Source: a virus
Virus record (IMG/VR): IMGVR_UViG_3300019360_000147
Span: 1 to 64,000 of that record
Reading direction: 5' to 3' (one strand)
Length of the DNA: 64,000 bases
The position numbers were made by a program, and so were the translations under genes. The notes beneath the pieces were generated by a model, which was given only the letters and a program-made list of their open reading frames with translations, ran no database searches and had not been told where the DNA came from. Positions within the stretch are counted from its first letter, which is position 1; every line of letters begins with the position of its first letter. Below, one piece after another: positions 854 through 51,047 of this stretch.

Positions 854-1381
854 GGCACAATCGAATCCGACACTCAGAGGGGATTGCGAGAGGTGCGCGC
901 ATGACCGAGCGGATCCTCCCGCACGGCACAATCGAATCCGACACTCAGAGGGGATTGCGAGCATGATCCCTTGGCACGGATGTTCCCTCCCCCGCGGCAC
1001 AATCGAATCCGACACTCAGAGGGGATTGCGAGCATGACAAGGATGGAAACAAGCTGTACGCGTTCCAGGCACAATCGAATCCGACACTCAGAGGGGATTG
1101 CGAGCGCACCCCCCTCATCAGGAATCACCTCCCTTCCCGGCACAATCGAATCCGAAACTCAGAGGGGATTGCGAGCGCTACGCGTGGGCATATGGCAATC
1201 GCGTTTCAGGCACAATCGAATCCGAAACTCAGAGGGGATTGCGAGTTGTCGTGGTACAGCGTGTAGCTGGCGATGTTCCCGGCACAATCGAATCCGAAAC
1301 TCAGAGGGGATTGCGAGAGAGCAGGCTGTGAACTAGCCGCTCGGCTTTCGGCACAAGCGAATCCGAAACTCAGAGGGGATT
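854..1381 (+). CRISPR. CRISPR array 1: 8 repeats, 7 spacers (32-35 bp)
   Basis: Repeat GGCACAATCGAATCCGA(C/A)ACTCAGAGGGGATTGCGAG (37 bp) starts at 854, 925, 996, 1068, 1139, 1209 and 1281. A truncated terminal repeat occupies 1350-1381. Confidence 0.98.
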
Positions 1382-1404
1382 TCTGATCAGAAAGGAGAGA
1401 TGAC

Positions 1405-6138: not shown

Positions 6139-6327
6139 ATGGAGGCCTGCAAGATTTGCGTGGAGCCGTGTACGGCCTGCGGGATGGATCCGCATGATCC
6201 CCGGTGTGGGATCTGCGGGATGCTGCACCAAGAGCCTGTGAGCCACGCCGGGGTGGCGTATTCGACCTGTGTGCGGTGTGGGAGGAGAGTATCGTCGCAG
6301 CGGCTGTTGACGTCCTCCCCGGACTGA
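6139..6327 (+). CDS. small Cys-rich protein, possibly truncated
   Basis: Four CxxC pairs; terminates inside the IS-end-like flank of array 2. Confidence 0.45.
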   Translation: MEACKICVEPCTACGMDPHDPRCGICGMLHQEPVSHAGVAYSTCVRCGRRVSSQRLLTSSPD

Positions 6328-6341
6328 AGTCCGGGGCGTCC
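6307..6341 (-). mobile_element. IS200/IS605 right-end-like hairpin (copy 1)
   Basis: Minus strand GGACGCCCCGGACTTCAGTCCGGGGAGGACGTCAA: a subterminal hairpin ending in TCAA. Identical to 10489-10523. Confidence 0.7.
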
Positions 6342-6362
6342 GCGCCCATGGAGAATCTGTGC

Positions 6363-6464
6363 GGCACAAGCGAATCCGAAACTCAGAGGGGATTGCGAGG
6401 CGCACGACCTCCGACTACATCCGCAAGCTCGCGGCACAATCGAACCCGAAGCTCAGAGGGGATT
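6363..6464 (+). CRISPR. satellite mini-array 2: 2 repeats, 1 spacer
   Basis: Repeats at 6363-6399 and 6433-6464 (truncated). Spacer GCGCACGACCTCCGACTACATCCGCAAGCTCGC. Confidence 0.93.
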
Positions 6465-6482
6465 TCTGATCAGAAAGGAGAG

Positions 6483-6514
6483 GTCAACTACCCCGCGCTA
6501 AAGTGCGGGGTCTC
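6483..6514. mobile_element. second IS200/IS605-type end remnant
   Basis: GTCAACTACCCCGCGCTAAAGTGCGGGGTCTC: a GTCAACTACCCC hairpin typical of IscB/TnpB-associated element ends. Confidence 0.6.
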
Positions 6515-6535
6515 TTGGCCGACTTTTTAGGAACT

Positions 6536-7180
6536 ATGAATCGACTCTGGTTTGACCTCGCCTTTCGCCGACGCGTGCGGGGGGAGATTCGGCGCTTGGG
6601 CCCGTGGTACCAACAGATTCAACTGCTGCCTGGCCTCTTTACCCGCCCGTGGAATCAGGCGACGATTGGGGAGTTGATTCACGCGGAACGGGGCGGACCG
6701 AAATTCCGAAGATTCCTGCTCCCAATGATCAAGCCGTATCTGCACGGGGGGACGGTTTTTGAGCTCGGCTGCAATGGCGCACAAATGCTCGTCTGCTGCC
6801 TGCGGCACGGAGCGGCCGAGGCATGGGGCGTCGAACCGGATGAGCGGTATCGCAAACAGGCCTGCCTAGTTCGGCAGTGCTTGGGCCTGCAACGACAATT
6901 GACGATCAGCAACCGGCCTCCGCTTGGTAAGAGTGTCGACATCGGTCTCATGTGTGCTGTTCTCCGGCATGTCGATCCCCTGGAGAGGGTGGGCGTGCTG
7001 CAGTCGATGGGTGAGTTCTGCAAGCGAGTGCTCATCAACGGCAATGGCTTATCGGACGCACCAGACGGGGATAGCATTGACTCGATTCTGCGGGATGTGC
7101 ACCGAACGAATCTGGTCGTTGAGGAGTTGCGATCCGAGCCGCATGTCCGCGGGCTGCGGATTCTGCTGAAGTCCCGATGA
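6536..7180 (+). CDS. class I SAM-dependent methyltransferase (CmoB/DUF1698-like)
   Basis: PWYQQIQL; VFELGCNGA...GVEPD SAM-binding motifs. Confidence 0.8.
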   Translation: MNRLWFDLAFRRRVRGEIRRLGPWYQQIQLLPGLFTRPWNQATIGELIHAERGGPKFRRFLLPMIKPYLHGGTVFELGCNGAQMLVCCLRHGAAEAWGVEPDERYRKQACLVRQCLGLQRQLTISNRPPLGKSVDIGLMCAVLRHVDPLERVGVLQSMGEFCKRVLINGNGLSDAPDGDSIDSILRDVHRTNLVVEELRSEPHVRGLRILLKSR

Positions 7181-7869
7181 TTCGTGAGATGCCCCTGGAG
7201 CGGCTGCTCAGCAAGGCGTTTCTGCGGCCGTGGCAGTTGAGTGAGTGTCACGCGGCACAATTGATCCTCGCTGGCCACACCGGCCTCGGCGGGACCCGGT
7301 TCGCCCACTTGCGGCTCGGTCTCCTGACGTGGGAGTCGCCTCACTGTGGGGAACTGCCGAAGGGCCTCGATGCCCCACTGCAGTACTGGGTGACTCCATG
7401 GCAGAGCAAGTTCCGTCGGCCGCTCAGCGTGGTGCAACGCGTCGAGCGGCGCCTGCGGTTCCGTCGGACGGTCTCCGACTTCCGCAAGTTGGTCCGCGTC
7501 ATGGACTGGAAGGGGTGGGTGGGGCCAGCGGTGCCGGGGATACTGCTGGTCGGCGGGGGATGGAAGGAAGTGGCAGGACCGAGGCAGGGCGATCCTGATC
7601 TTGTGCCGGAGTCGGCTGGCCGAGAGATTCCATTCAATCGGGATTCCTCCAGCGAATTATTTCTCCATACGGATGGCAACCGGAGAATTGGCATCGCAGC
7701 CGCAGTCGGAATTTTGAGAGTGCCGGTCAAGATCACCCCCCTGCTTACATTCGACTGGCAGGGGACGAGGGCGGCAGGGACGGGGCGATTCAGTGAGGGG
7801 GATACGCGGCGGATCTGGGAGCATGTGTGGGAACGCGTACTCCCCGACTATCGCAGGTCGGCACCATGA
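7177..7869 (+). CDS. ParB/Srx-fold-like protein
   Basis: HTDGNRRIGIAAAVGILRVPV resembles the DGxHR...GxxxVPV motif. Confidence 0.55.
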   Translation: MIREMPLERLLSKAFLRPWQLSECHAAQLILAGHTGLGGTRFAHLRLGLLTWESPHCGELPKGLDAPLQYWVTPWQSKFRRPLSVVQRVERRLRFRRTVSDFRKLVRVMDWKGWVGPAVPGILLVGGGWKEVAGPRQGDPDLVPESAGREIPFNRDSSSELFLHTDGNRRIGIAAAVGILRVPVKITPLLTFDWQGTRAAGTGRFSEGDTRRIWEHVWERVLPDYRRSAP

Positions 7870-8630
7870 AGCTGACTGTGCGGCAGAAGATCGTGCGCAG
7901 ACTGGCCCGGATCAAGACACGGATGGCATATCAGTGGGAACGACCGACGCATTGTTGGTGCGGCGGGGAATTGTTCAGGGATATGAACAGCCTCGACCCA
8001 TCCGTATCGGCCTGTTCGGTATGCTGGACGCGGGCACTGCGCCACAGACTTACCGAAGCATCGTATGCTCGCTGGTACGCGAGCGGGGACTACCGGCGGT
8101 ATGTAATGGGAACGAGCGGCGTGGCCATCGGACAGGTGATGAAGGAAATACGTCGGGCGGCCGCTGCCGTAAAGTTCCTCGGTGATCACGGGGTCGCCAT
8201 TCGCGGCACTTGGGTTCTCGATGTCGGATCCGGTGCTGGCGGTTGGTTGCTCGTGGCGAAACTTTTCGGTGCATGTCGGGTGGTGGGCGTGGATGTCGAT
8301 GATCGTTCACGGGCGGTTCCGTCTGAGTTCGGTCTCTCGGTACTCAAGGCCAGGCCTCAGGACGGTTTGTGGGACCGGATAATCTGTAGTCACATCATAG
8401 AGCACATCATACACCCGGTGGAATTCTTGAAGGACGTGCGTTCGGTCCTCGGCAGGAACGGGTGCCTCTACATCGAAACGCCAGCGTGGGGGCCGAAGGC
8501 GGAAGTGAAATTGCCGCATCCGTTTTACTACAGCCCCGACTCGTTGCGGCTCTTGGCGACGCGGGCGGGATTGGAAGTGGTGGCCATGACGGATGGAATT
8601 CAGGCGGTGCTGCGGAGGCTGAGCAGCTAA
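7866..8630 (+). CDS. class I SAM-dependent methyltransferase
   Basis: VLDVGSGAG, VGVDVD, HIIEHIIHP, LYIETP. Confidence 0.9.
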   Translation: MKLTVRQKIVRRLARIKTRMAYQWERPTHCWCGGELFRDMNSLDPSVSACSVCWTRALRHRLTEASYARWYASGDYRRYVMGTSGVAIGQVMKEIRRAAAAVKFLGDHGVAIRGTWVLDVGSGAGGWLLVAKLFGACRVVGVDVDDRSRAVPSEFGLSVLKARPQDGLWDRIICSHIIEHIIHPVEFLKDVRSVLGRNGCLYIETPAWGPKAEVKLPHPFYYSPDSLRLLATRAGLEVVAMTDGIQAVLRRLSS

Positions 8631-8639
8631 CAGACAGTA

Positions 8640-9608
8640 ATGAAGAGAATTTGCTATCTGACAGATTCATTGTCGTGGATCCAAGCCCAGCGGGCCAAGG
8701 ACCTCCAGCCGTATCTTCCGGAGTACGCACTCATCCCGATGCTCCCGACTGATGCCCTTCGATACGCCCCGATCATCTTGGCCTATTACGACGCGGTATG
8801 GTTCGCCTCTTGGCGAATCATACTGGCAGAACCGAGGCTCATGGACGCATTGAATCTGTCTGCCTGCATGGCATCCGTGACCAGCCACTACCACATCGGC
8901 GGTGGCCTCAAGCCGGAGACGTGCTTTCGGAAGGGGACTGATCCCGACCAGGAATTCACCAAGGCCATCGAGGTGCTGACACGCTTCCGGCTCGTCACAT
9001 GCAACTCGAAGATTCTGTACGACCTCCTTTCGCCCCATCTGCCGGAGCTCGTGCTGGCGCAGAATGGGGTCGATGCGGAGTTCTTTCACCCATCAGCCGA
9101 GGGGCATCACTGGTTCGACAGACGTGTCATCTTCCCCTCCGTTGGCTGGGTGGGGAAGGACAAGGGGGCCAAGAATCTGGCGATATTCATGGAGGCGTAC
9201 CGGAAAATCGACGGGCCCTGGCCCCTGTTTCCCATGGTCGTTCCCAAGAAGCGGGGCGGGCCAGTGAAGACGCGGGGGGGGATGCGGAACTTCTACTGGC
9301 AGACGGATTTCCTCGCCTGTACGAGCTGGCACGAAGGCACGCCGAATCCGGCGCTGGAGGCTGCGGCATGTGGTCTACCAATTATCACCACAAGGGTAGG
9401 CAACATGCCAGAGTTCGTGACCGAAGGCGGTACCGGCTGGTTTATCGAACCGACAGCCGAGAGCCTGATCGCCTGCATAGAGCGGTTGAAGGAGATCACG
9501 CCTGAACAATACCGCCGCATGTCTCAGGCCATTCGGACCGAGATCGAAATGCACTGGACCTGGTCGAAGCGGGCCGTGGCGTATCGGAAGGCACTGGAGA
9601 CGCTATGA
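8640..9608 (+). CDS. GT4 family glycosyltransferase
   Basis: QNGVD; TSWHEGTPNPALEAAACGLPIITTRVG. Confidence 0.9.
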   Translation: MKRICYLTDSLSWIQAQRAKDLQPYLPEYALIPMLPTDALRYAPIILAYYDAVWFASWRIILAEPRLMDALNLSACMASVTSHYHIGGGLKPETCFRKGTDPDQEFTKAIEVLTRFRLVTCNSKILYDLLSPHLPELVLAQNGVDAEFFHPSAEGHHWFDRRVIFPSVGWVGKDKGAKNLAIFMEAYRKIDGPWPLFPMVVPKKRGGPVKTRGGMRNFYWQTDFLACTSWHEGTPNPALEAAACGLPIITTRVGNMPEFVTEGGTGWFIEPTAESLIACIERLKEITPEQYRRMSQAIRTEIEMHWTWSKRAVAYRKALETL

Positions 9609-10432
9609 TCCCCCCCCAGAACGTCTCCGAGGCCGTCTACCGCCGGGAGGTGGCGAAGCGGATCGGCCTATGTCGGCGGATCATCGCAGAGGACTGGATG
9701 CGTTTCCGTCCACTGATTCGGCTTGTCGTGCTGAGTTGCAAGCGCCCCAAGGAATTGGCGAGGCTCATGGATGGCTTGGTGCATATGCCATCGAACGAGC
9801 CGAAGATCTTTGCAACCCTGCTGGTTGATAACGGCTCAGGCGAAGCAGTGAGGCGCATCGCCGAGTCCTACGGATTCTTTGGTGATATGATCCTGCATGA
9901 GGCGAATATTGGTATGGGGGCGGCGCTCAATGGCGCACTCAGCAGTTTCCCGGCTGAGTTCATTCTCTTCATCGAGGACGATTTGGTTCTGGAGCGTCCG
10001 GGATTCCTGAGGGGCTGCTTGGACATCTTTCGCGAGTTCCAAGAGATCGGCCTCATCAAGCTCAAGCGCAAGGACGCCTGGGACGAGAAGCCCTACCGGC
10101 GCATCGGCCCCATGCAAACCACGACCACGGGCGTTCGGTTCCATCCGTGGCTGCCGTCCCCCCGGGGGTCCTTCCGGTGGGGCCAGCGCCCGTGGTATCC
10201 AGTCGGAGTGCACAACGTATGGAGCCTCGGACCGGTGATGTTCCGCTGGTGTGCGTGGAAAGAGGCCGGACCGATCCAGACTGGGCAGGGCAGGGGACAG
10301 GCCGTGGCGGCGGAGGAGGTGTACGCCCGCACATTCAATCAGCGGTGGCTGGCGGCGAGACCTGTTGATATTCAGCCGTTCTCGCAACCGGAGACGTTAG
10401 AGAGTCCGGGGTTCAGGGATGAGATCGCATAG
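9605..10432 (+). CDS. GT2 family glycosyltransferase
   Basis: VLSCKRP, LVDNGS, ILFIEDD. Confidence 0.85.
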   Translation: MIPPQNVSEAVYRREVAKRIGLCRRIIAEDWMRFRPLIRLVVLSCKRPKELARLMDGLVHMPSNEPKIFATLLVDNGSGEAVRRIAESYGFFGDMILHEANIGMGAALNGALSSFPAEFILFIEDDLVLERPGFLRGCLDIFREFQEIGLIKLKRKDAWDEKPYRRIGPMQTTTTGVRFHPWLPSPRGSFRWGQRPWYPVGVHNVWSLGPVMFRWCAWKEAGPIQTGQGRGQAVAAEEVYARTFNQRWLAARPVDIQPFSQPETLESPGFRDEIA

Positions 10433-10488
10433 GGCCAAGCGCATGGCGCAGAGCGGCGAATCTGCGGTGGCGGTAGAGAAGATAGAGA

Positions 10489-10523
10489 TTGACGTCCTCC
10501 CCGGACTGAAGTCCGGGGCGTCC
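10489..10523 (-). mobile_element. IS200/IS605 right-end-like hairpin (copy 2)
   Basis: Identical to 6307-6341; identity between the copies begins exactly at TTGAC. Confidence 0.7.
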
Positions 10524-10544
10524 GCGCCCATGGAGAATCTGTGC

Positions 10545-10719
10545 GGCACAATCGAGTCCGAAACTCAGAGGGGATTGCGAGCCAACCGGACCGTCTGCCC
10601 AGCCCCGCACGATCGGGCACAATCGAATCCGAAACTCAGAGGGGATTGCGAGTTGACGTAGCGTGAGAGGTTCCCAACCAGGGTTGTGGCACAATCGAAT
10701 CCGAAACTCAGAGGGGATT
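10545..10719 (+). CRISPR. satellite mini-array 3: 3 repeats, 2 spacers
   Basis: Repeats at 10545, 10616 and 10688 (truncated). Spacers of 34 and 35 bp. Confidence 0.95.
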
Positions 10720-10752
10720 TCTGATCAGAAAGGAGAGAGGAGACGAACCGCG

Positions 10753-11532
10753 ATGCGTCCTGACATCACGATCTGCATCCTCTCTGCCGTCGAGCCGCCG
10801 TTGCCAGAATGCGTGGAGGCAGTCCGAAAGATCCTGGCCTCGGACTCACGGATCGGAGGGATCATCTCCGTCACGGATGTATTCCCGATGTCAGCGGCCT
10901 TCAACGCGATGATCGAGCGGTGCCCGTCCCGCTTCATCGTCCAAGTGGACGGGGATGTGGTCCTCGAACCGTGGGCGGTTGAGCGGCTGTACAATTTCAT
11001 CCACTGGACACCACTGGTGTACATGGCCTGGGGGCAGTTGTGGGAATCCTATGACGACGGCCTGCGGGCCGGTGGATCGGTACGGATCTGGCGCAGATGG
11101 CCCGTGAAACTGTTCCGGTTTCGCGACGAGCGGTGCGTGGATCGGGGACTGCATTCGCGGATCAGACTGACGGGGATGCGTCGGGTCCAGGTCGAGGCGG
11201 GGTGGAAGTTTGGGACACACTACCCGCGGCAAACTCCCTTTGCCATATTCAGTAAGTCCCGTGGCGATGCGATGAAGTGGCGGGTGCTCGGCCGGAGCGA
11301 TCTGATCAGGGCCCACCACACGCAGTTCCCGCCTGGGCTGTCTCTCGACGCCCTGGGCCGCCTGTCGGGATTGCAGGCGCCGCAGGATGAGGTGTGGCGG
11401 TCGAAGGATGCTCGGAAGGACTGGCACGAATTCCTGCGGATCGGAGGGCGGTATGCGGGCAGTCAAGGCCAAGCGGCTGCGCAAGCAGGTGTACGGCGAT
11501 TTCAGTCAGCGGGAGCGAAAATATTACCGTGA
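10753..11532 (+). CDS. GT-A/GT2-like glycosyltransferase
   Basis: DITICIL; AFNAMIERC..FIVQVDGDVVL (DxD motif). Confidence 0.75.
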   Translation: MRPDITICILSAVEPPLPECVEAVRKILASDSRIGGIISVTDVFPMSAAFNAMIERCPSRFIVQVDGDVVLEPWAVERLYNFIHWTPLVYMAWGQLWESYDDGLRAGGSVRIWRRWPVKLFRFRDERCVDRGLHSRIRLTGMRRVQVEAGWKFGTHYPRQTPFAIFSKSRGDAMKWRVLGRSDLIRAHHTQFPPGLSLDALGRLSGLQAPQDEVWRSKDARKDWHEFLRIGGRYAGSQGQAAAQAGVRRFQSAGAKILP

Positions 11533-25241: not shown

Positions 25242-26540
25242 GTTAGTACCCTCGGTGAATCTCGATGAGGATGCCGATGACGAGGATGGACAGGACAGTA
25301 GCGTAGATTTTTGGTCATTTTTGAGGGGCGAGTTACGGTCAAAAAGGGAAAAAGGCCCTCCCGGGAGGGCAGGAGGGCGGCTGGAGAGGGCCGGGGATCA
25401 GGCTGAGCCGGCTCGGGCGTCGGGGGCGAGGAGAAGAAGATCCGACAGAAGGTTGCGAAGCCGCTCGGTCACTGCGGGAGAAAAACATTCTGCTTTCGTG
25501 GTGGTGGAGTCCCGGAAGAGAAAGGCGTACCCGCCTTGGGGGAGAGAGGCTGCGCATCGGAGGGAAGGGATGGAGTCCCAAGAATTCCAGCCGGGGCGGC
25601 CGAGGGGCCTACCCCCCAGGGGGGTGGTCTTTCAGATTCCGACCAGTCGGCCGCGGCTCGGCCGGGCGATCGCCGCCCACATCATCCTGGGCCTGACTGG
25701 CGACCAGGACGGCGACCAGACTTAACGACCCCTCGTAACCTACTATCAACACACGGTCTCCATTACCGTGAATTCGACTGCCTGTCGAATACCACAGATT
25801 GTGCCTCGCGCTGTACATTTTTCAAATCAGAAGGCCAGACTCACAATCCATCTGAGTTTCTGATTCGCCGGAGCTGCCGGCGGATTGAACCCGCACCAGT
25901 CGCACGACAGCACGATTCGACCCACCCCGCTCAACGCCGGTTCCGACGCTATCACCTGAGGCGTGCCGACCCCGTTCAACGCAGCCGCGCATGGCCGCAC
26001 ACTGGCACACACAACTACACCCGCTTCAACCTCTTTCAACGTGGACACCCTGGGGCTTACTTCCACCGGATACTCTTACTCTCTCAGACGTACTTCGAGT
26101 CACTACAATCAAATCGGGTACTGTGTGCTGTATCGAGTACTTGGGACTTCAATCCGTCTCCGAGTACTCTATCCGATAGGTCGTACACTATACGTCCTAC
26201 TACAGAGTACTTCGGACTCGGACGCTAACGCGCGCGCGAGGCTTGCCATTGGCAATGTCTGCGATCCGCGAGGGGGCGACGTATTGGTATACTTTACCGT
26301 ACAAGATTGCACAAATAACTGTGCAAAAGTATTGTCATGTATCCAAAAATATTGTGCACTGTGTTTTCGCTGGCTTGGCGGATCTCCTACAGACAAAGTG
26401 CATGATTTACAGGGCAAGAGACATGGAGCAAAATACTACACGATAGTAATATCAGCCCTTTACGCCCTCAGCACCAATATTGCGCCGACAACGGTGCACT
26501 AATGAACGCCGTAGAAACAGATGACTAAAGAGGGGAAACC

Positions 26541-45163: not shown

Positions 45164-45298
45164 GCAGTCGGCGATTCGACAACTGAACGACCCAACCGTT
45201 CGGCTGATCACCGGACGGTCCGCAAGGAAACAGAGGCCCAGGAACCGTAGCTACGGGCGGTTGCTGGGCTTTCTGTTTTGGGCTCCTGGAGCAACGCA

Positions 45299-47521
45299 GT
45301 GGCCGACACGCAGGTTCTCGAGCAGGACGTTTCCTACGAATCCAGGCAGCCGGCTGGTGCCGTGGAGGAGCAGCAGGACCTTCGCGTGCCGGATGATCGT
45401 GCTTCGTGGGCGATCGGACTCATCTACGAGTGGGAGAACGGGAAGGGCAAGGAGCTGCGGGAACGCGCCAAGAAGATGTTCAAGTATTACAACGGGGACC
45501 AGTGGGATCCGACGGTGCGGTCCAAGATGGAGTCCTCGGACGATCCCCGGCCCGTGATGACGTTCAACGAGATCCGGCCAAAGATCGACATCCTGTCGGG
45601 CGAGGAGCGACGGAATCGCGAGGACTGGGTCGCCAAGCCGCGGGAGGGGTCCGATGAGGAGGAGGCCCAGATCCGCACGGCCCTGCTCAAGTACAAGCGG
45701 GACCAGAACACGCTGGCGGTGGAGGAAAGCCGGGCGTTCGAGGAGGGCATTATCGGGGGGTATGCCGGCGTGGCCTGTGACCTCGTGGCCGATCCCGAGG
45801 GCGGGGCGCCGTTGATCCATGTCGAGGCGCGGGACTGGTCCGAGTTCCGGTGGGATCTGACCAGCCGCAAGCCCGATATGACGGACGCACACTGGATGGC
45901 CTTGTCCGTCATGGCCAGTCCCGACCGGCTGTCCGAACTCTTTCCAAACTGGTCGGTCGAGATCAACGGCGAGTATGCGAGCCTTTGTCACGACCCCCTG
46001 ATCGAGGAAGCGGATATCGGCGAGCGCATCGGCGTGACCCGCTATCTCGATGGCCGGATGCGGAAGACCCTCTTCGATACGAAGGAGAAGAAGATCCGCA
46101 CGATCCAGTTCTACTACCGGACGATGCGGAAGCGGGAGTACCTGACGATCCAGGGTCCGCAGGGCCTCGTGGAGCGGGAGGTTCCGGAGGGCGACAACAA
46201 AGAGTTGCGGGCACTGGCCGATCAACTTCTCCTGACGGGACGCGCCCAGCGGAAGATTGTGGCCGAGAAGGCGATCCGGGGCCTTTTGATCGTCGGGCGG
46301 CGGACGCTGGCGCAATGGTGGTCGCCGTTCGACGGGCAGGATGCCTTCGGGACACCCTACTTTCCCCTGCATCTCTGGAAGGCCTCGGACACCGATGGCT
46401 ACATCATGGGCCTGGTCGAGTCCTTGGTAAGTCCGCAGGATGAGGTGAACAAGCGCTGGACGATGATGGTCGAAAACTACCTCAAGACGGCGCGCTCCGG
46501 CGGGTTGTACGAGGAGAACGCGTTCGAGAACGAGGCGGAGGCGAAGCGGAAGTGGGGATCTCCCGGCTACTGGGCGAAAGTCCGTCAAAACGCCATCAGT
46601 CAGCAACGGATCAAGGAGCACACGGCGAAGCCCCCAGACACGGCCCTGATGATGCTGTTCCAGGCCGCCGAGGCCAGCGTGGACCGGATCAGCAACATGG
46701 ACAAGGGCCGAATGGGGATGCTGAGCCGGGAGGAGAGCGGGGTCGCGATCCGGACGCGAGCGGTCCAGTCTGCGCTGGTCCAGGTCAAGGCGTTCGACAA
46801 CTTCCGGAACTTCCAACTCCGACTGGGGCGATTCCTGAATGCCAATCTGCATCTGGAGTTCCCGGTGCGACGCACGATACGCCTCGTGATGCCGACCGGG
46901 GACACGAAGTCGGTCGTGCTGAACGAAGTCGTCCGGACGCAGACGGGGGCGACCCGGATCGCGAACAACACGCGGTCGGCTGGCCTCTACGACATCATCA
47001 TGGATCTGACGCCTGGCAACGCGACCTTCCGGGAAATGCAGGCGCAGAACCTGGGGAATCTGATCGGGCAGATCGGGCCGCCCATGAAGGAGTTGCCGTG
47101 GTTCCTGCCGGCCTACGCGGCCCTGTTGAAGGGACAGATTAAGATGATCGACGGGCTGCCGAATCGGGACGAGATCATCAAGGCCCTGGACGCGGCCACG
47201 CAGGCCGTCGCCCAGGGCGGTCCTGGGGCCCCCGGCCAGCCCCCGCCCCCGCCCGAGCCGAAGGTTTCCATTGCCCTCAAGGGCGACCTCTCGCCCGAGA
47301 CGGCCGCAGACCTTGCGGATGGTCGGTTAGACAGCCAGCCGATCCCCGCACAGCCTGAGCCGCCCACTGGAGCATCCACCACGGTCCGCCCAAGTGTTCC
47401 GCGGGCCGTGCCCAGGCCTGCGCCTCCGGGACCCCCGGGGGGGCTACCCTTCACCCCGGCCGCACTGACGGTGCCGCGCGCCGGGCCAGTCGGGACACCG
47501 AACATCATGGGAGGTCCCTGA
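45299..47521 (+). CDS. portal protein (P22-like)
   Basis: YYNGDQWD, P.MTFNEIRP..GEE, SPQDEVNKR, ESGVAI, YDIIMD; about 740 aa. Confidence 0.9.
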   Translation: MADTQVLEQDVSYESRQPAGAVEEQQDLRVPDDRASWAIGLIYEWENGKGKELRERAKKMFKYYNGDQWDPTVRSKMESSDDPRPVMTFNEIRPKIDILSGEERRNREDWVAKPREGSDEEEAQIRTALLKYKRDQNTLAVEESRAFEEGIIGGYAGVACDLVADPEGGAPLIHVEARDWSEFRWDLTSRKPDMTDAHWMALSVMASPDRLSELFPNWSVEINGEYASLCHDPLIEEADIGERIGVTRYLDGRMRKTLFDTKEKKIRTIQFYYRTMRKREYLTIQGPQGLVEREVPEGDNKELRALADQLLLTGRAQRKIVAEKAIRGLLIVGRRTLAQWWSPFDGQDAFGTPYFPLHLWKASDTDGYIMGLVESLVSPQDEVNKRWTMMVENYLKTARSGGLYEENAFENEAEAKRKWGSPGYWAKVRQNAISQQRIKEHTAKPPDTALMMLFQAAEASVDRISNMDKGRMGMLSREESGVAIRTRAVQSALVQVKAFDNFRNFQLRLGRFLNANLHLEFPVRRTIRLVMPTGDTKSVVLNEVVRTQTGATRIANNTRSAGLYDIIMDLTPGNATFREMQAQNLGNLIGQIGPPMKELPWFLPAYAALLKGQIKMIDGLPNRDEIIKALDAATQAVAQGGPGAPGQPPPPPEPKVSIALKGDLSPETAADLADGRLDSQPIPAQPEPPTGASTTVRPSVPRAVPRPAPPGPPGGLPFTPAALTVPRAGPVGTPNIMGGP

Positions 47522-49290: not shown

Positions 49291-50283
49291 ATGGCTGACA
49301 CCACAGTCGCGACGGGTGATGCCGTCGCGGTCAAGCGATGGGATCCCAAGTTCATCAGGCAGGCGAGCAAGAAGATCTTTTTCGCCGCCATGACGGGCAA
49401 GGATGAGAACAACATCGTCCAGAGCAAGCTCGACCTGACCAAGGGGCCGGGGGATCGGATCACGATGCCGCTCTTCCCGCGGTTCTCCGGGGCCGGCGTA
49501 CAGGGCGATGTGGACATTGAGGGGAATGAGGAGGCGATTACGCCGCAGAGTGACAACGTGTCCATCGACTTCTACGCCCAGGCCTTCCGGGTCAGCGGGC
49601 TGATGACGGAGCAGAGAAGCCCCGACGATCTCCGGCGGGCGGCGCGGGAGCAGTTGTCGATCTGGCTGGGGGAGAAGGTGGACCAGCTTGGCTTCGATGC
49701 CATCGAGTCGAGCCCGACTCTGATCTATTCCGAGAACTCGGACACGCTGGTCAAGTCCGGCCCGACCACCTCGATCGTGGCCGCTGATCTGATCGAGCCG
49801 CACATGGCGAGCTTCCTGCGCCATGCCGCGAACACCCAGAGTCCCAAGATCAAGTGCATCAAGCAGGGCGGGCGGGATGTGTTCGTGCTCCTGATGCACC
49901 CGCACTGTGCCTACGACATGAAGAATGACAGCACCTGGCAGAACTTCCACCGGGACGCGGACGTGCGCGACGCCAAGGACAACTACCTGTTCAAGGCCGG
50001 GATGGGGACGATCGACGACGTCCTGCTGTATGAGCATGAGAACGTCGCCGTCGCGACCACCTGGGGGGCGGGGGCGGTCTATGGGGCGCGGAACAAGTTC
50101 ATGGGGGCGCAGGCTATGGCGCTCGCGTGGGCGCGGTTCCCGTTCCTGGTGGAGAAGCGTTTCCAGTATGGCACGAAGTGGGGGGCCATGGTGGGGGCGG
50201 TGCTCGGGTTCCGGAAGCTTGTTTACGATAGCAAGGACTTTGGGCTGGCCGAATTGAGGACAGCACGAACGAATCTAAACTGA
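49291..50283 (+). CDS. major capsid protein (N4-gp56/DUF4043-like)
   Basis: DLTKGPGDRIT, GVQGD..IEGNEE, MHP..YDMKND..W, FMGAQA; strong SD. Confidence 0.9.
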   Translation: MADTTVATGDAVAVKRWDPKFIRQASKKIFFAAMTGKDENNIVQSKLDLTKGPGDRITMPLFPRFSGAGVQGDVDIEGNEEAITPQSDNVSIDFYAQAFRVSGLMTEQRSPDDLRRAAREQLSIWLGEKVDQLGFDAIESSPTLIYSENSDTLVKSGPTTSIVAADLIEPHMASFLRHAANTQSPKIKCIKQGGRDVFVLLMHPHCAYDMKNDSTWQNFHRDADVRDAKDNYLFKAGMGTIDDVLLYEHENVAVATTWGAGAVYGARNKFMGAQAMALAWARFPFLVEKRFQYGTKWGAMVGAVLGFRKLVYDSKDFGLAELRTARTNLN

Positions 50284-50342: not shown

Positions 50343-51047
50343 ATGCCAACGGAGGAGAAAGCGCGGCAACCTTCCACAGCGGCAACGGCGGTGGCGGACC
50401 CGCCGCCGTCAGATAGGAAACTGGTTCAAGTCGACGCCGATGTCTGGGCGGAGATCGTCCGAAGGCAGGGGGCCATGGAGCGGATGCTGGAGCAGATCCA
50501 GGCCGAGCGTGCCGCCGGTGGTCCGACGCCGAACATCATCAGACCGCCCGTCGTCGCCAAGACCATGCCGCCGAACTACGTGGTCTGGCTGGGAACTGAG
50601 CCCCGCTCGGGCGATTTGTATCTGGGGGCCAAGGGCACGGTCACCACGGTCAACTCCGAGGAGACGACCGTGATGACGGACGGGGACGGCCACGGCAAGC
50701 CGCGGACGATCCGGGGGCAGCTCTGTGCGTTCCGGACGACCGAGTACTCGGATTCGGGGATGAAAAGCATCGATTTCATCCGCCGATGCCCCTCGGGGCA
50801 CAAGTATGCCGGTCGGCTGTTCGCGGAGTTGGACTGTCCGGAGCATGCGGCGTACCTGCATCTGATCGCGCCGGACGGCAAAGGGCACGACAAGGATGGA
50901 AACAAGCTGTACGCGTTCCACCTCATCGGGGACTGGATTCCCAAGTACCAGAACCTGGTGCGGTTCCGCATGAACGCGCGGAAAGCCGCCGAGGTGGATG
51001 TGGACTTTGTCGCCTCGGATGGCGTGGAGATGCCGTTCGAGGAGTAG
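50343..51047 (+). CDS. hypothetical late protein; contains the protospacer for spacer 3
   Basis: SD AAGGAGGAGG; 50886-50920 matches the spacer at 1033-1067. Confidence 0.75.
   Translation: MPTEEKARQPSTAATAVADPPPSDRKLVQVDADVWAEIVRRQGAMERMLEQIQAERAAGGPTPNIIRPPVVAKTMPPNYVVWLGTEPRSGDLYLGAKGTVTTVNSEETTVMTDGDGHGKPRTIRGQLCAFRTTEYSDSGMKSIDFIRRCPSGHKYAGRLFAELDCPEHAAYLHLIAPDGKGHDKDGNKLYAFHLIGDWIPKYQNLVRFRMNARKAAEVDVDFVASDGVEMPFEE

Follow-up and report, generated by a model that had tools for sequence, protein, structure and literature searches.

In the phage genome represented by IMG/VR record IMGVR_UViG_3300019360_000147, two satellite CRISPR mini-arrays, which reuse the repeat of a main array linked to a Cas12f-like effector, were each found to be headed by an identical 56-bp block, and the outer 30 nt of this block, read on the minus strand, is the exact terminus of an IS200/IS605-family right end. 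The identification of this terminus, made by sequence comparison, is solid. The window analysed herein is the first 64 kb (64,000 nucleotides) of this one 73,725-bp virus record, hereafter referred to as the contig. With a confidence just short of an even chance, the satellites are taken to be real additional arrays that belong to the Cas12f-like, nuclease-dead system of the phage itself, and that were capped by the fossil of an insertion sequence (IS) and copied by a transposase-type event.

The 37-nt repeat (GGCACAATCGAATCCGAAACTCAGAGGGGATTGCGAG) occurs in a total of 13 copies, all on the plus strand: eight at 854-1386, two at 6363-6469 and three at 10545-10724. The final copy in each array is truncated after ...GGGGATT, and the satellites therefore end at 6464 and 10719, exactly where the first-pass annotation had placed their ends. 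The main array (854-1386, plus strand) consists of eight repeats, the last one truncated, and seven spacers, mini-array 1 (6363-6464, plus strand) of two repeats and one spacer (6400-6432), and mini-array 2 (10545-10719, plus strand) of three repeats and two spacers (10582-10615 and 10653-10687). No two of the ten spacers, 32-35 nt in length, are alike. These loci have the characteristics of CRISPR arrays, i.e. constant 37-nt direct repeats, unique spacers of similar length, and a repeat that is that of the effector-linked array, and the comparison of repeats and spacers agreed with the earlier claim that both mini-arrays reuse the repeat of the main array with spacers of their own. The satellites were also considered as RNA anti-CRISPRs, in which a solitary spacerless repeat mimics a host CRISPR RNA (crRNA), and this was ruled out by the one and two full spacers that lie between their repeats.

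An 18-nt tail (TCTGATCAGAAAGGAGAG), composed of the palindrome TCTGATCAGA and the Shine-Dalgarno-like AAGGAGAG, is common to the ends of all three arrays (1382-1399, 6465-6482 after mini-array 1, and 10720-10737, all on the plus strand), and a gene starts 5 to 53 nt downstream of each copy. After the first copy come ATGA and the beginning of gene 1405-1758, and 15 nt beyond the third there is an ATG at 10753. Since the tail places a ribosome-binding-like motif before the next gene, array ends and gene starts look coupled. A remnant of the repeat 3' end (9 nt, GATTGCGAG) was also noted at 838-846, 7 nt ahead of the first repeat of the main array, so that the main array has decayed repeats at both ends.

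The 56-bp blocks at 6307-6362, upstream of mini-array 1, and at 10489-10544 are identical at 56/56 positions and are the only two copies in the whole contig. Their identity starts exactly at TTGAC; the preceding base is G in one case and A in the other, and the flanks further upstream are unrelated. Within each block is a perfect hairpin, CCCCGGAC-TGAA-GTCCGGGG (8-bp stem, 4-nt loop), which is restricted to the two blocks in the contig, and among the other perfect hairpins listed for the contig (stem of at least 7 bp), none resembles it. All these points, the identical blocks before both satellites, the identity from TTGAC onward and the hairpin inside, are as the first-pass annotation had described them.

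When the block is read on the minus strand, its outer 30 nt (from 6336 down to 6307 in the first copy) form the right-end terminus of the IS605 family, that is, an 8-bp hairpin with a UUCA loop followed by AGGACGTCAA, and are identical at 30/30 nt to several genomic IS copies, the remaining copies differing by one or two stem bases. In prokaryote contigs representing one genome per species, the minus-strand 22-mer TTCAGTCCGGGGAGGACGTCAA gave nine exact matches, all from Actinomycetota, and in 9/9 cases it is the final 22 nt of a conserved TnpB-only element of 1.2-1.35 kb. The gene of this element carries the Pfam domains OrfB_IS605, Cas12f1-like TNB and HTH_OrfB_IS605 as well as the motif NADVNAARNIAA, with a RuvC-III motif upstream of the 22-mer, and is followed by approximately 110 nt of omega-RNA-like sequence, the hairpin and AGGACGTCAA, in this order. 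A looser pattern located the same type of end, its stems covarying, in 12 viral contigs; in several of these a TnpB motif precedes it, and in some it stands alone. Conservation ends right after TCAA in the nine genomic and the 12 viral copies. A covariance model of 19 such ends (R1), from which the window was excluded, matched 6307-6356 and 10489-10538 on the minus strand with 54.1 bits and an expectation value (E) of 6e-10 to 1e-9, as against 11.7 bits on the plus strand. The first-pass annotation had assigned the minus-strand hairpin to an IS200/IS605 right end and had counted a block that matches no IS end as part of the case against its interpretation; the nine exact genomic matches, the 12 viral contigs and the covariance model (E ~1e-9) together place the block with the right ends of the IS605 family.

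In an Rfam scan, both blocks matched HgcC (RF00062) weakly on the minus strand (E 1.4e-3 and 28 bits, which is under the gathering score), almost wholly owing to the hairpin and AGGACGUCA. HgcC has been reported with an 'RE-like UUCA tetraloop' (8-bp stem, UUCA loop) at the right ends of IS1341-type tnpB elements (Gomes-Filho et al. 2015, PMC4615843). A solitary right end of the same type, CCCCGTCC-TTCA-GGGCGGGG-AGGACGTCAA, with a block-like inner arm, was observed in the Ralstonia phage Cimandef (L020:2501-2546), and also in the phages Heva and Dimitile; the Cimandef copy lies within an annotated coding sequence for a 'hypothetical protein' of 64 amino acids in a divergent intergenic region. 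As to further copies of the block and the repeat, for which the first-pass annotation had proposed a search, the contig itself provides two sites with different flanks, but none was added from elsewhere: exact scans of viral contigs with the repeat and with the block gave no match, and a 51-nt block sequence, with up to 3 mismatches allowed, was not found in 401 Mycobacteriaceae genomes. Six single matches to a 19-mer of the repeat in metagenome contigs were rejected as chance matches, not arrays.

In the actinobacterial copies of this IS (L011-L018), the left flank is always TCAT, the CAT of which is the ATG of a real opposite-strand open reading frame (ORF) in 6/8 copies, and the complement of the left end gives a ribosome-binding-like motif (GAAGGAGAT). 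Judging from these sequences, the actinobacterial TnpB-only family seems to insert just upstream of start codons. Two of the actinobacterial genomes with this end have Y1 TnpA genes adjoining near-identical UUCA hairpins. A resident element of the IS1341 type, with a homologous left end, also occurs past the end of the window (minus strand, contig positions 69494-70662, L001:5494-6662). Its left end consists of TCAT, the hairpin CCTCGTCC-GTCA-GGGCGGGG and then AGGAGCGCCGAT, and this hairpin (L001 6639-6662, minus strand) is the next match of R1 after the two blocks. Its TnpB (contig 69494-70591, minus strand) is intact, with 366 amino acids, OrfB_IS605 and TNB domains, recognisable RuvC-I, RuvC-II and RuvC-III motifs, a zinc finger and 26% identity to the actinobacterial TnpB. 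The resident left-end hairpin and the block hairpin differ in sequence, and the resident element seems to stop after the penultimate hairpin, without the terminal right-end hairpin of the IS family.

Together with their blocks, the satellites form cassettes of 229 bp (cassette 1, 6307-6535) and 249 bp (cassette 2). Inward of its outer 30 nt, the block continues with approximately 16 nt that are loosely similar to a right end. A likeness of the 12 nt adjoining the repeat to the leader of the main array is seen by eye only (CATGGAGAATCT versus CATCAGAATTC), and a relationship between block and leader was rejected because the comparison gave no real similarity. Two candidates for a left end were likewise discarded as not significant, the inner 26 nt of the block as a left-end arm, compared with IS1341-type and TnpA-bearing elements (p 0.06-0.34), and the shared tail plus truncated repeat (p 0.05-0.33). 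A second IS-type hairpin region is located at 6483-6535 (minus strand), in which the hairpin at 6489-6510 (CCCCGCAC-UUUA-GCGCGGGG), directly after cassette 1's array and 25 nt from the ATGA of gene 6536, is related to the block hairpin and folds stably with one G.U pair. It agrees with the left-end hairpin of one actinobacterial IS copy (L012) at 19/24 positions (local alignment, shuffle p ~0.002), and the region is a possible degenerate left end of cassette 1.

The arrangement of these elements bears on how the second cassette arose. Both block copies stop exactly at the transposon terminus beside unrelated flanks and join the first repeat at the same point; the window's three IS-type hairpins are confined to the two satellites; and cassette 1 is bordered on either side by IS-type hairpins of one orientation and runs up to an ATGA start, as do the insertions of this IS family. 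The intact resident TnpB element in the contig also speaks for a transposition-like history. Given the same block-repeat junction, the exact terminus and the unrelated flanks, copying of the module by a cut at the right-end cleavage site is the most economical explanation. The upstream cap would be the fossil of an IS200/IS605-family element (TnpB-only, IS1341-type) on the strand opposite to the genes, consisting of the last ~46 nt of its right end, namely the terminal omega-RNA hairpin and the 10-nt tail from there to the TnpA cleavage site. Once capped in this way, the array module would have been duplicated at another location through a cut at this cleavage site, presumably by the single-strand 'peel-and-paste' chemistry of a host Y1 transposase acting in trans. 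Cassette 1 may remain as a shell of left end, cargo and right end inserted at the ATGA start codon, and both cassettes are probably immobile today.

The same arrangement could have arisen without any transposase, by segmental duplication or array recombination, which is considered unlikely and yet is the explanation next in weight. An IS beside one array would have decayed to its right end, and illegitimate recombination, either repeat-mediated or promoted by the hairpin, would then have brought a copy of the stub and the first repeat to the second array, with the IS stub as a passive passenger. Recombination of this kind would be eased by the tail and repeats common to all three arrays, and is in line with the lack of tnpA and of a second left end, with the different spacers of the satellites and with the array-free orphan ends that this IS family has in other phages. 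It requires, however, that the border of the copy coincides by chance with the transposon terminus, at the first base of TTGAC, and it leaves the clustering of all three IS-type hairpins at both satellites as a further coincidence. As for mobility by a Y1 transposase in trans, which the first-pass annotation had proposed, the exact termini and the TnpA genes beside near-identical hairpins elsewhere are in its favour, but tnpA is lacking from the contig, cassette 2 has no left end and cassette 1 has a weak one; from the sequences, such movement of the cassettes is plausible.

A number of observations weigh against copying by a transposase. No match to tnpA (Y1, PF01797) was detected in the 73.7-kb contig. 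Cassette 2 has neither a left-end hairpin nor TCAT, the target of the IS family, and the hairpin at 6489-6510 of cassette 1 scores weakly with the right-end model (9.7 bits, E 2.8), its arms matching no known left ends. The 26 nt between the block hairpin and the repeat are without a significant match to IS arms (p 0.06-0.34). The satellites have no spacer in common, a surprising fact if either was recently copied from the other, and their first repeats differ at 2/37 positions while the blocks are 56/56 identical. Satellites are absent from all three viral records with related effectors, this end adjoins no array in the other viral contigs examined, neither an empty site nor a related phage was found, and viral contigs gave no neighbourhoods of gene 6536 homologues. 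In addition, the RNA fold of the repeat (e.g. 1139-1175) is better for the minus strand (-10.6 kcal/mol, z -2.7) than for the plus strand (-7.1 kcal/mol, z -0.85), because two G.U pairs on the minus strand become A.C on the plus strand.

An insertion of cassette 1 into a gene was also considered, since removal of 6307-6535 joins a Cys-rich ORF (6139-6306) in frame to gene 6536, as if the cassette had split a gene for a zinc-ribbon methyltransferase. This idea was rejected as a 1-in-3 coincidence: the 27 homologues of the gene 6536 product are 164-245 amino acids long, mostly 216-245, with no such N-terminal extension, and most of them cover nearly the whole query.

The cassettes would most likely be transcribed on the plus strand, together with the glycosylation operon in which they lie, to yield crRNAs. 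Transcription in this direction is favoured by the degenerate last repeat, which is distal to the effector in the window and in two of the viral contigs with related effectors (L008 and L009), and by the repeats of L009 and L010, which begin with GTTGCA. Repeats of Cas12f arrays begin with GTTGCA. The two spacer matches described below point in the same direction, the mismatch of the self-match being solely at guide position 3 and the match to an outside sequence being perfect over the first 22 nt. By this polarity, the right end is antisense to the crRNAs. The better fold of the repeat on the minus strand conflicts with the polarity of the arrays, and the plus strand is therefore only the probable one to be transcribed.

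If the plus strand is transcribed, the hairpin could have been co-opted, whatever its origin, as an RNA element that shields the 3' end of the upstream message or marks the 5' border of the crRNA precursor. The stem-loop is strong (approximately -20 kcal/mol), the block folds stably on both strands and lies between genes of a co-oriented operon, neither a sigma-70-like promoter nor a classic terminator is found nearby, and the two copies are 100% identical. Recency alone could account for this identity, however, and the hairpin has no U-tract, while array 1 works without a block; a role of this kind is regarded as improbable.

If instead the minus strand is transcribed, the right-end hairpin, AGGACGUCAA and the adjoining phage flank could form a short guide RNA or a decoy for TnpB, either the resident TnpB (69494-70591) or that of the host. 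The right end is indeed intact to its last base and shares its strand with the resident tnpB, this strand also gives the repeat its better fold, and the resident element seems to end after its penultimate hairpin without a terminal hairpin of its own. A full scaffold exceeds 100 nt; the block nevertheless holds only ~46 nt, and the sequence upstream of it is a CRISPR repeat and not tnpB; the 16-24 nt following TCAA match nothing else in the contig, and the resident left-end hairpin is unlike the block hairpin in sequence. A physical hybrid of omega-RNA and CRISPR, which the first-pass annotation had offered as a second possibility, is unlikely, given that the ~46 nt of scaffold is opposite to the probable crRNA strand and that the effector is dissimilar to the TnpB proteins that own this end; the probability of a minus-strand guide for TnpB is estimated to be very low.

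Least probable is a chimeric join in the metagenome assembly, caused by the repeats and blocks. The contig is indeed of metagenomic origin and is broken inside the effector gene, and repeated stretches of 90 nt can mislead assemblers; yet the spacers are unique, and the cassettes lie between intact co-oriented genes for glycosyltransferases and methyltransferases, with no disrupted frames. Because of the unique spacers and the unique flanks of each cassette, such an artefact is unlikely.

The effector associated with the arrays is encoded at 3-671 on the plus strand by an ORF that stops 182 bp upstream of the main array. The C-terminal 222 amino acids are present; the 5' half of the gene is cut off at the contig start, and the missing N-terminal half was not found elsewhere in the contig. 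Full-length relatives have 407-453 amino acids, and the family forms 127 clusters at 50% identity among 1.84 billion proteins. The family profile matched Cas12f1 (9i8y) with E 1.3e-4, and the structural model of one relative (P0001, 47-sequence alignment), with a predicted local distance difference test score (pLDDT) of 88.7, matched in Foldseek Cas12f (E 1e-15), dCas12f (9n9c, 4e-14) and TnpB (8e-9). In a hidden Markov model alignment to AsCas12f, the position of the RuvC-II Glu is occupied by Gly or Ala in the effector family. The family ends in a long helix right after the ...FDP... strand, with no zinc finger (TNB), CxxC motifs or RuvC-III motif; nuclease activity requires both an intact RuvC triad and the zinc-finger domain. 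The effector is thus predicted, from the fold and the alignments, to be a phage-borne Cas12f-like protein that is probably nuclease-dead. It shows no pairwise similarity to the TnpB proteins that own the right end described above.

Three viral contigs encode relatives of the effector, each with its own array directly downstream and each with a different repeat, and a profile search of the one-per-species prokaryote contigs detected no relatives. A small conserved gene (1405-1758), the function of which is unassigned, follows the array in this phage, and its homologue in the viral contig with the closest relative (L008:3253-3569) lies between effector and array; the gene has no Pfam match.

As to the targets of the arrays, spacer 3 of the main array (1033-1067) matches, at 34/35 positions, the phage's own gene after the capsid gene (50886-50920, plus strand), with the mismatch at spacer position 3, which is consistent with arrays directed against close relatives, the position-3 mismatch sparing the phage itself. 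The second spacer of mini-array 2 (10653-10687) matches 514-546 of an AT-rich viral contig (L037), exactly over its 5' 22 nt and at 32/35 positions overall with two homopolymer gaps; by a rough estimate, ~0.01 such 22-mer matches are expected by chance. The matched gene, next to an integrase, has a RelA/SpoT domain and corresponds to the PADLOC candidate PDC-S33 (E 2e-18), so that targeting of a defence gene is a possible role of this spacer on the strength of the sequence match. Since the GC contents differ (0.37 versus 0.63) and the gaps would break the reading frame, the match remains a lead. Spacer targets were not found in 50,697 phage records or in three actinobacterial genomes, and the spacer of mini-array 1 has no exact 22-mer in the viral contigs.

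The crRNAs would then guide the dead effector to bind, and not to cut, targets in rival phages or in defence genes. With a nuclease-dead effector, the likeliest output would be binding with transcriptional silencing, by analogy with Cas12m, TldR and dCas12f. Silencing through binding without cutting is established for these three (PMC11656645, PMC13565253).

The setting of the satellites is a P22-like phage genome, with a P22-like portal gene at 45278-47518 and a capsid gene at 49291-50280. Nearly all genes are on the plus strand, including the long run of glycosyltransferase and methyltransferase genes that surrounds the satellite arrays. The nearest cultured phages by portal protein infect Proteobacteria at just 23-25% identity, and the actinobacterial matches of the right end therefore do not identify the host. 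A degenerate inverted unit at ~25766-25867 (minus strand), composed of the 3' part of the repeat, 34 nt, the first 9 nt of the repeat and then a new hairpin, is a fourth, decayed satellite, and has no IS block adjoining it.

Compared with known systems, the block has the same 8-bp stem, UUCA loop and 10-nt tail to TCAA as the IS1341-type right end of the IS200/IS605 family, which is the 3' end of the omega-RNA, and likewise is strand-specific with an exact terminus; it differs in that only the last ~46 nt are present, without tnpB and without the upstream scaffold, the CRISPR repeat taking the place of the element interior. Palindrome-associated transposable elements (PATE) and derivatives like miniature inverted-repeat transposable elements (MITE), the non-autonomous IS200/IS605 forms with fused ends or similar to repetitive extragenic palindromes (REP), are likewise short, protein-less, hairpin-bearing and intergenic, and cassette 1 resembles them in its IS-type hairpins at both borders in the same orientation and in abutting ATGA. 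Here, in contrast, a CRISPR mini-array would be the cargo, cassette 2 lacks a left end, that of cassette 1 is in doubt, and mobility is putative.

CRISPR mini-arrays carried by viruses are used in inter-virus conflict with the repeats and Cas proteins of the host (Medvedeva et al. 2019, as summarised in PMC11656645). As far as that summary describes them, the satellites are similar in being viral and having one or two spacers, and one spacer of the main array nearly matches a late gene of the phage itself; they differ in that the repeats belong to a phage-encoded effector and in the transposon end on the arrays. C-terminally truncated, nuclease-dead Cas12f proteins have also been described, one locus having 'multiple discontinuous CRISPR arrays' (Hoffmann et al., Nature 2026, PMC13472631). 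The present system shares with these dCas12f systems, as well as with TldR, Cas12m and the TranC intermediates, a compact C-terminally truncated Cas12f-like protein and several scattered guide loci. Unlike the dCas12f systems, it is viral and has no sigma-E gene, no sigma factor partner of any kind being found in the 73.7-kb contig, and its satellites are IS-capped and lie 5-10 kb away in a glycosylation operon. The effector family is just 13-16% identical to the solved Cas12f proteins. A review of CRISPR in mobile elements is confined to mini-arrays, solitary repeats, type V-M and CRISPR-associated transposons (CASTs) (PMC11656645).

The origin of arrays, their spread and their separation from effectors are poorly understood. 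To our knowledge, CRISPR mini-arrays capped by IS605 ends have not been described before. In this phage, an exact, strand-specific transposon terminus is fused to the head of two satellite arrays, and the genome also holds an intact TnpB element belonging to this IS family. The cassettes of 229 bp and 249 bp are directly testable as substrates for excision by TnpA. If the copies are the work of a transposase, guide cassettes can relocate by themselves, a route that is absent from the review of CRISPR in mobile elements (PMC11656645); if no transposase was involved, the locus is still a clear and datable case of IS debris shaping viral CRISPR loci.

A stronger proposal, in which minimal IS200/IS605 transposons carry guide cassettes as their cargo and the Y1 transposase of a host peels off right-end-capped mini-arrays and pastes them at new sites just upstream of start codons, is at present doubtful. 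If it is true, the phage could spread and re-wire guide modules for a nuclease-dead Cas12f-like regulator. Cas12 effectors descend from TnpB of IS200/IS605 elements, and cassettes of this kind would be a living link from transposon ends to CRISPR arrays, opposite in direction to the known path from TnpB to Cas12.

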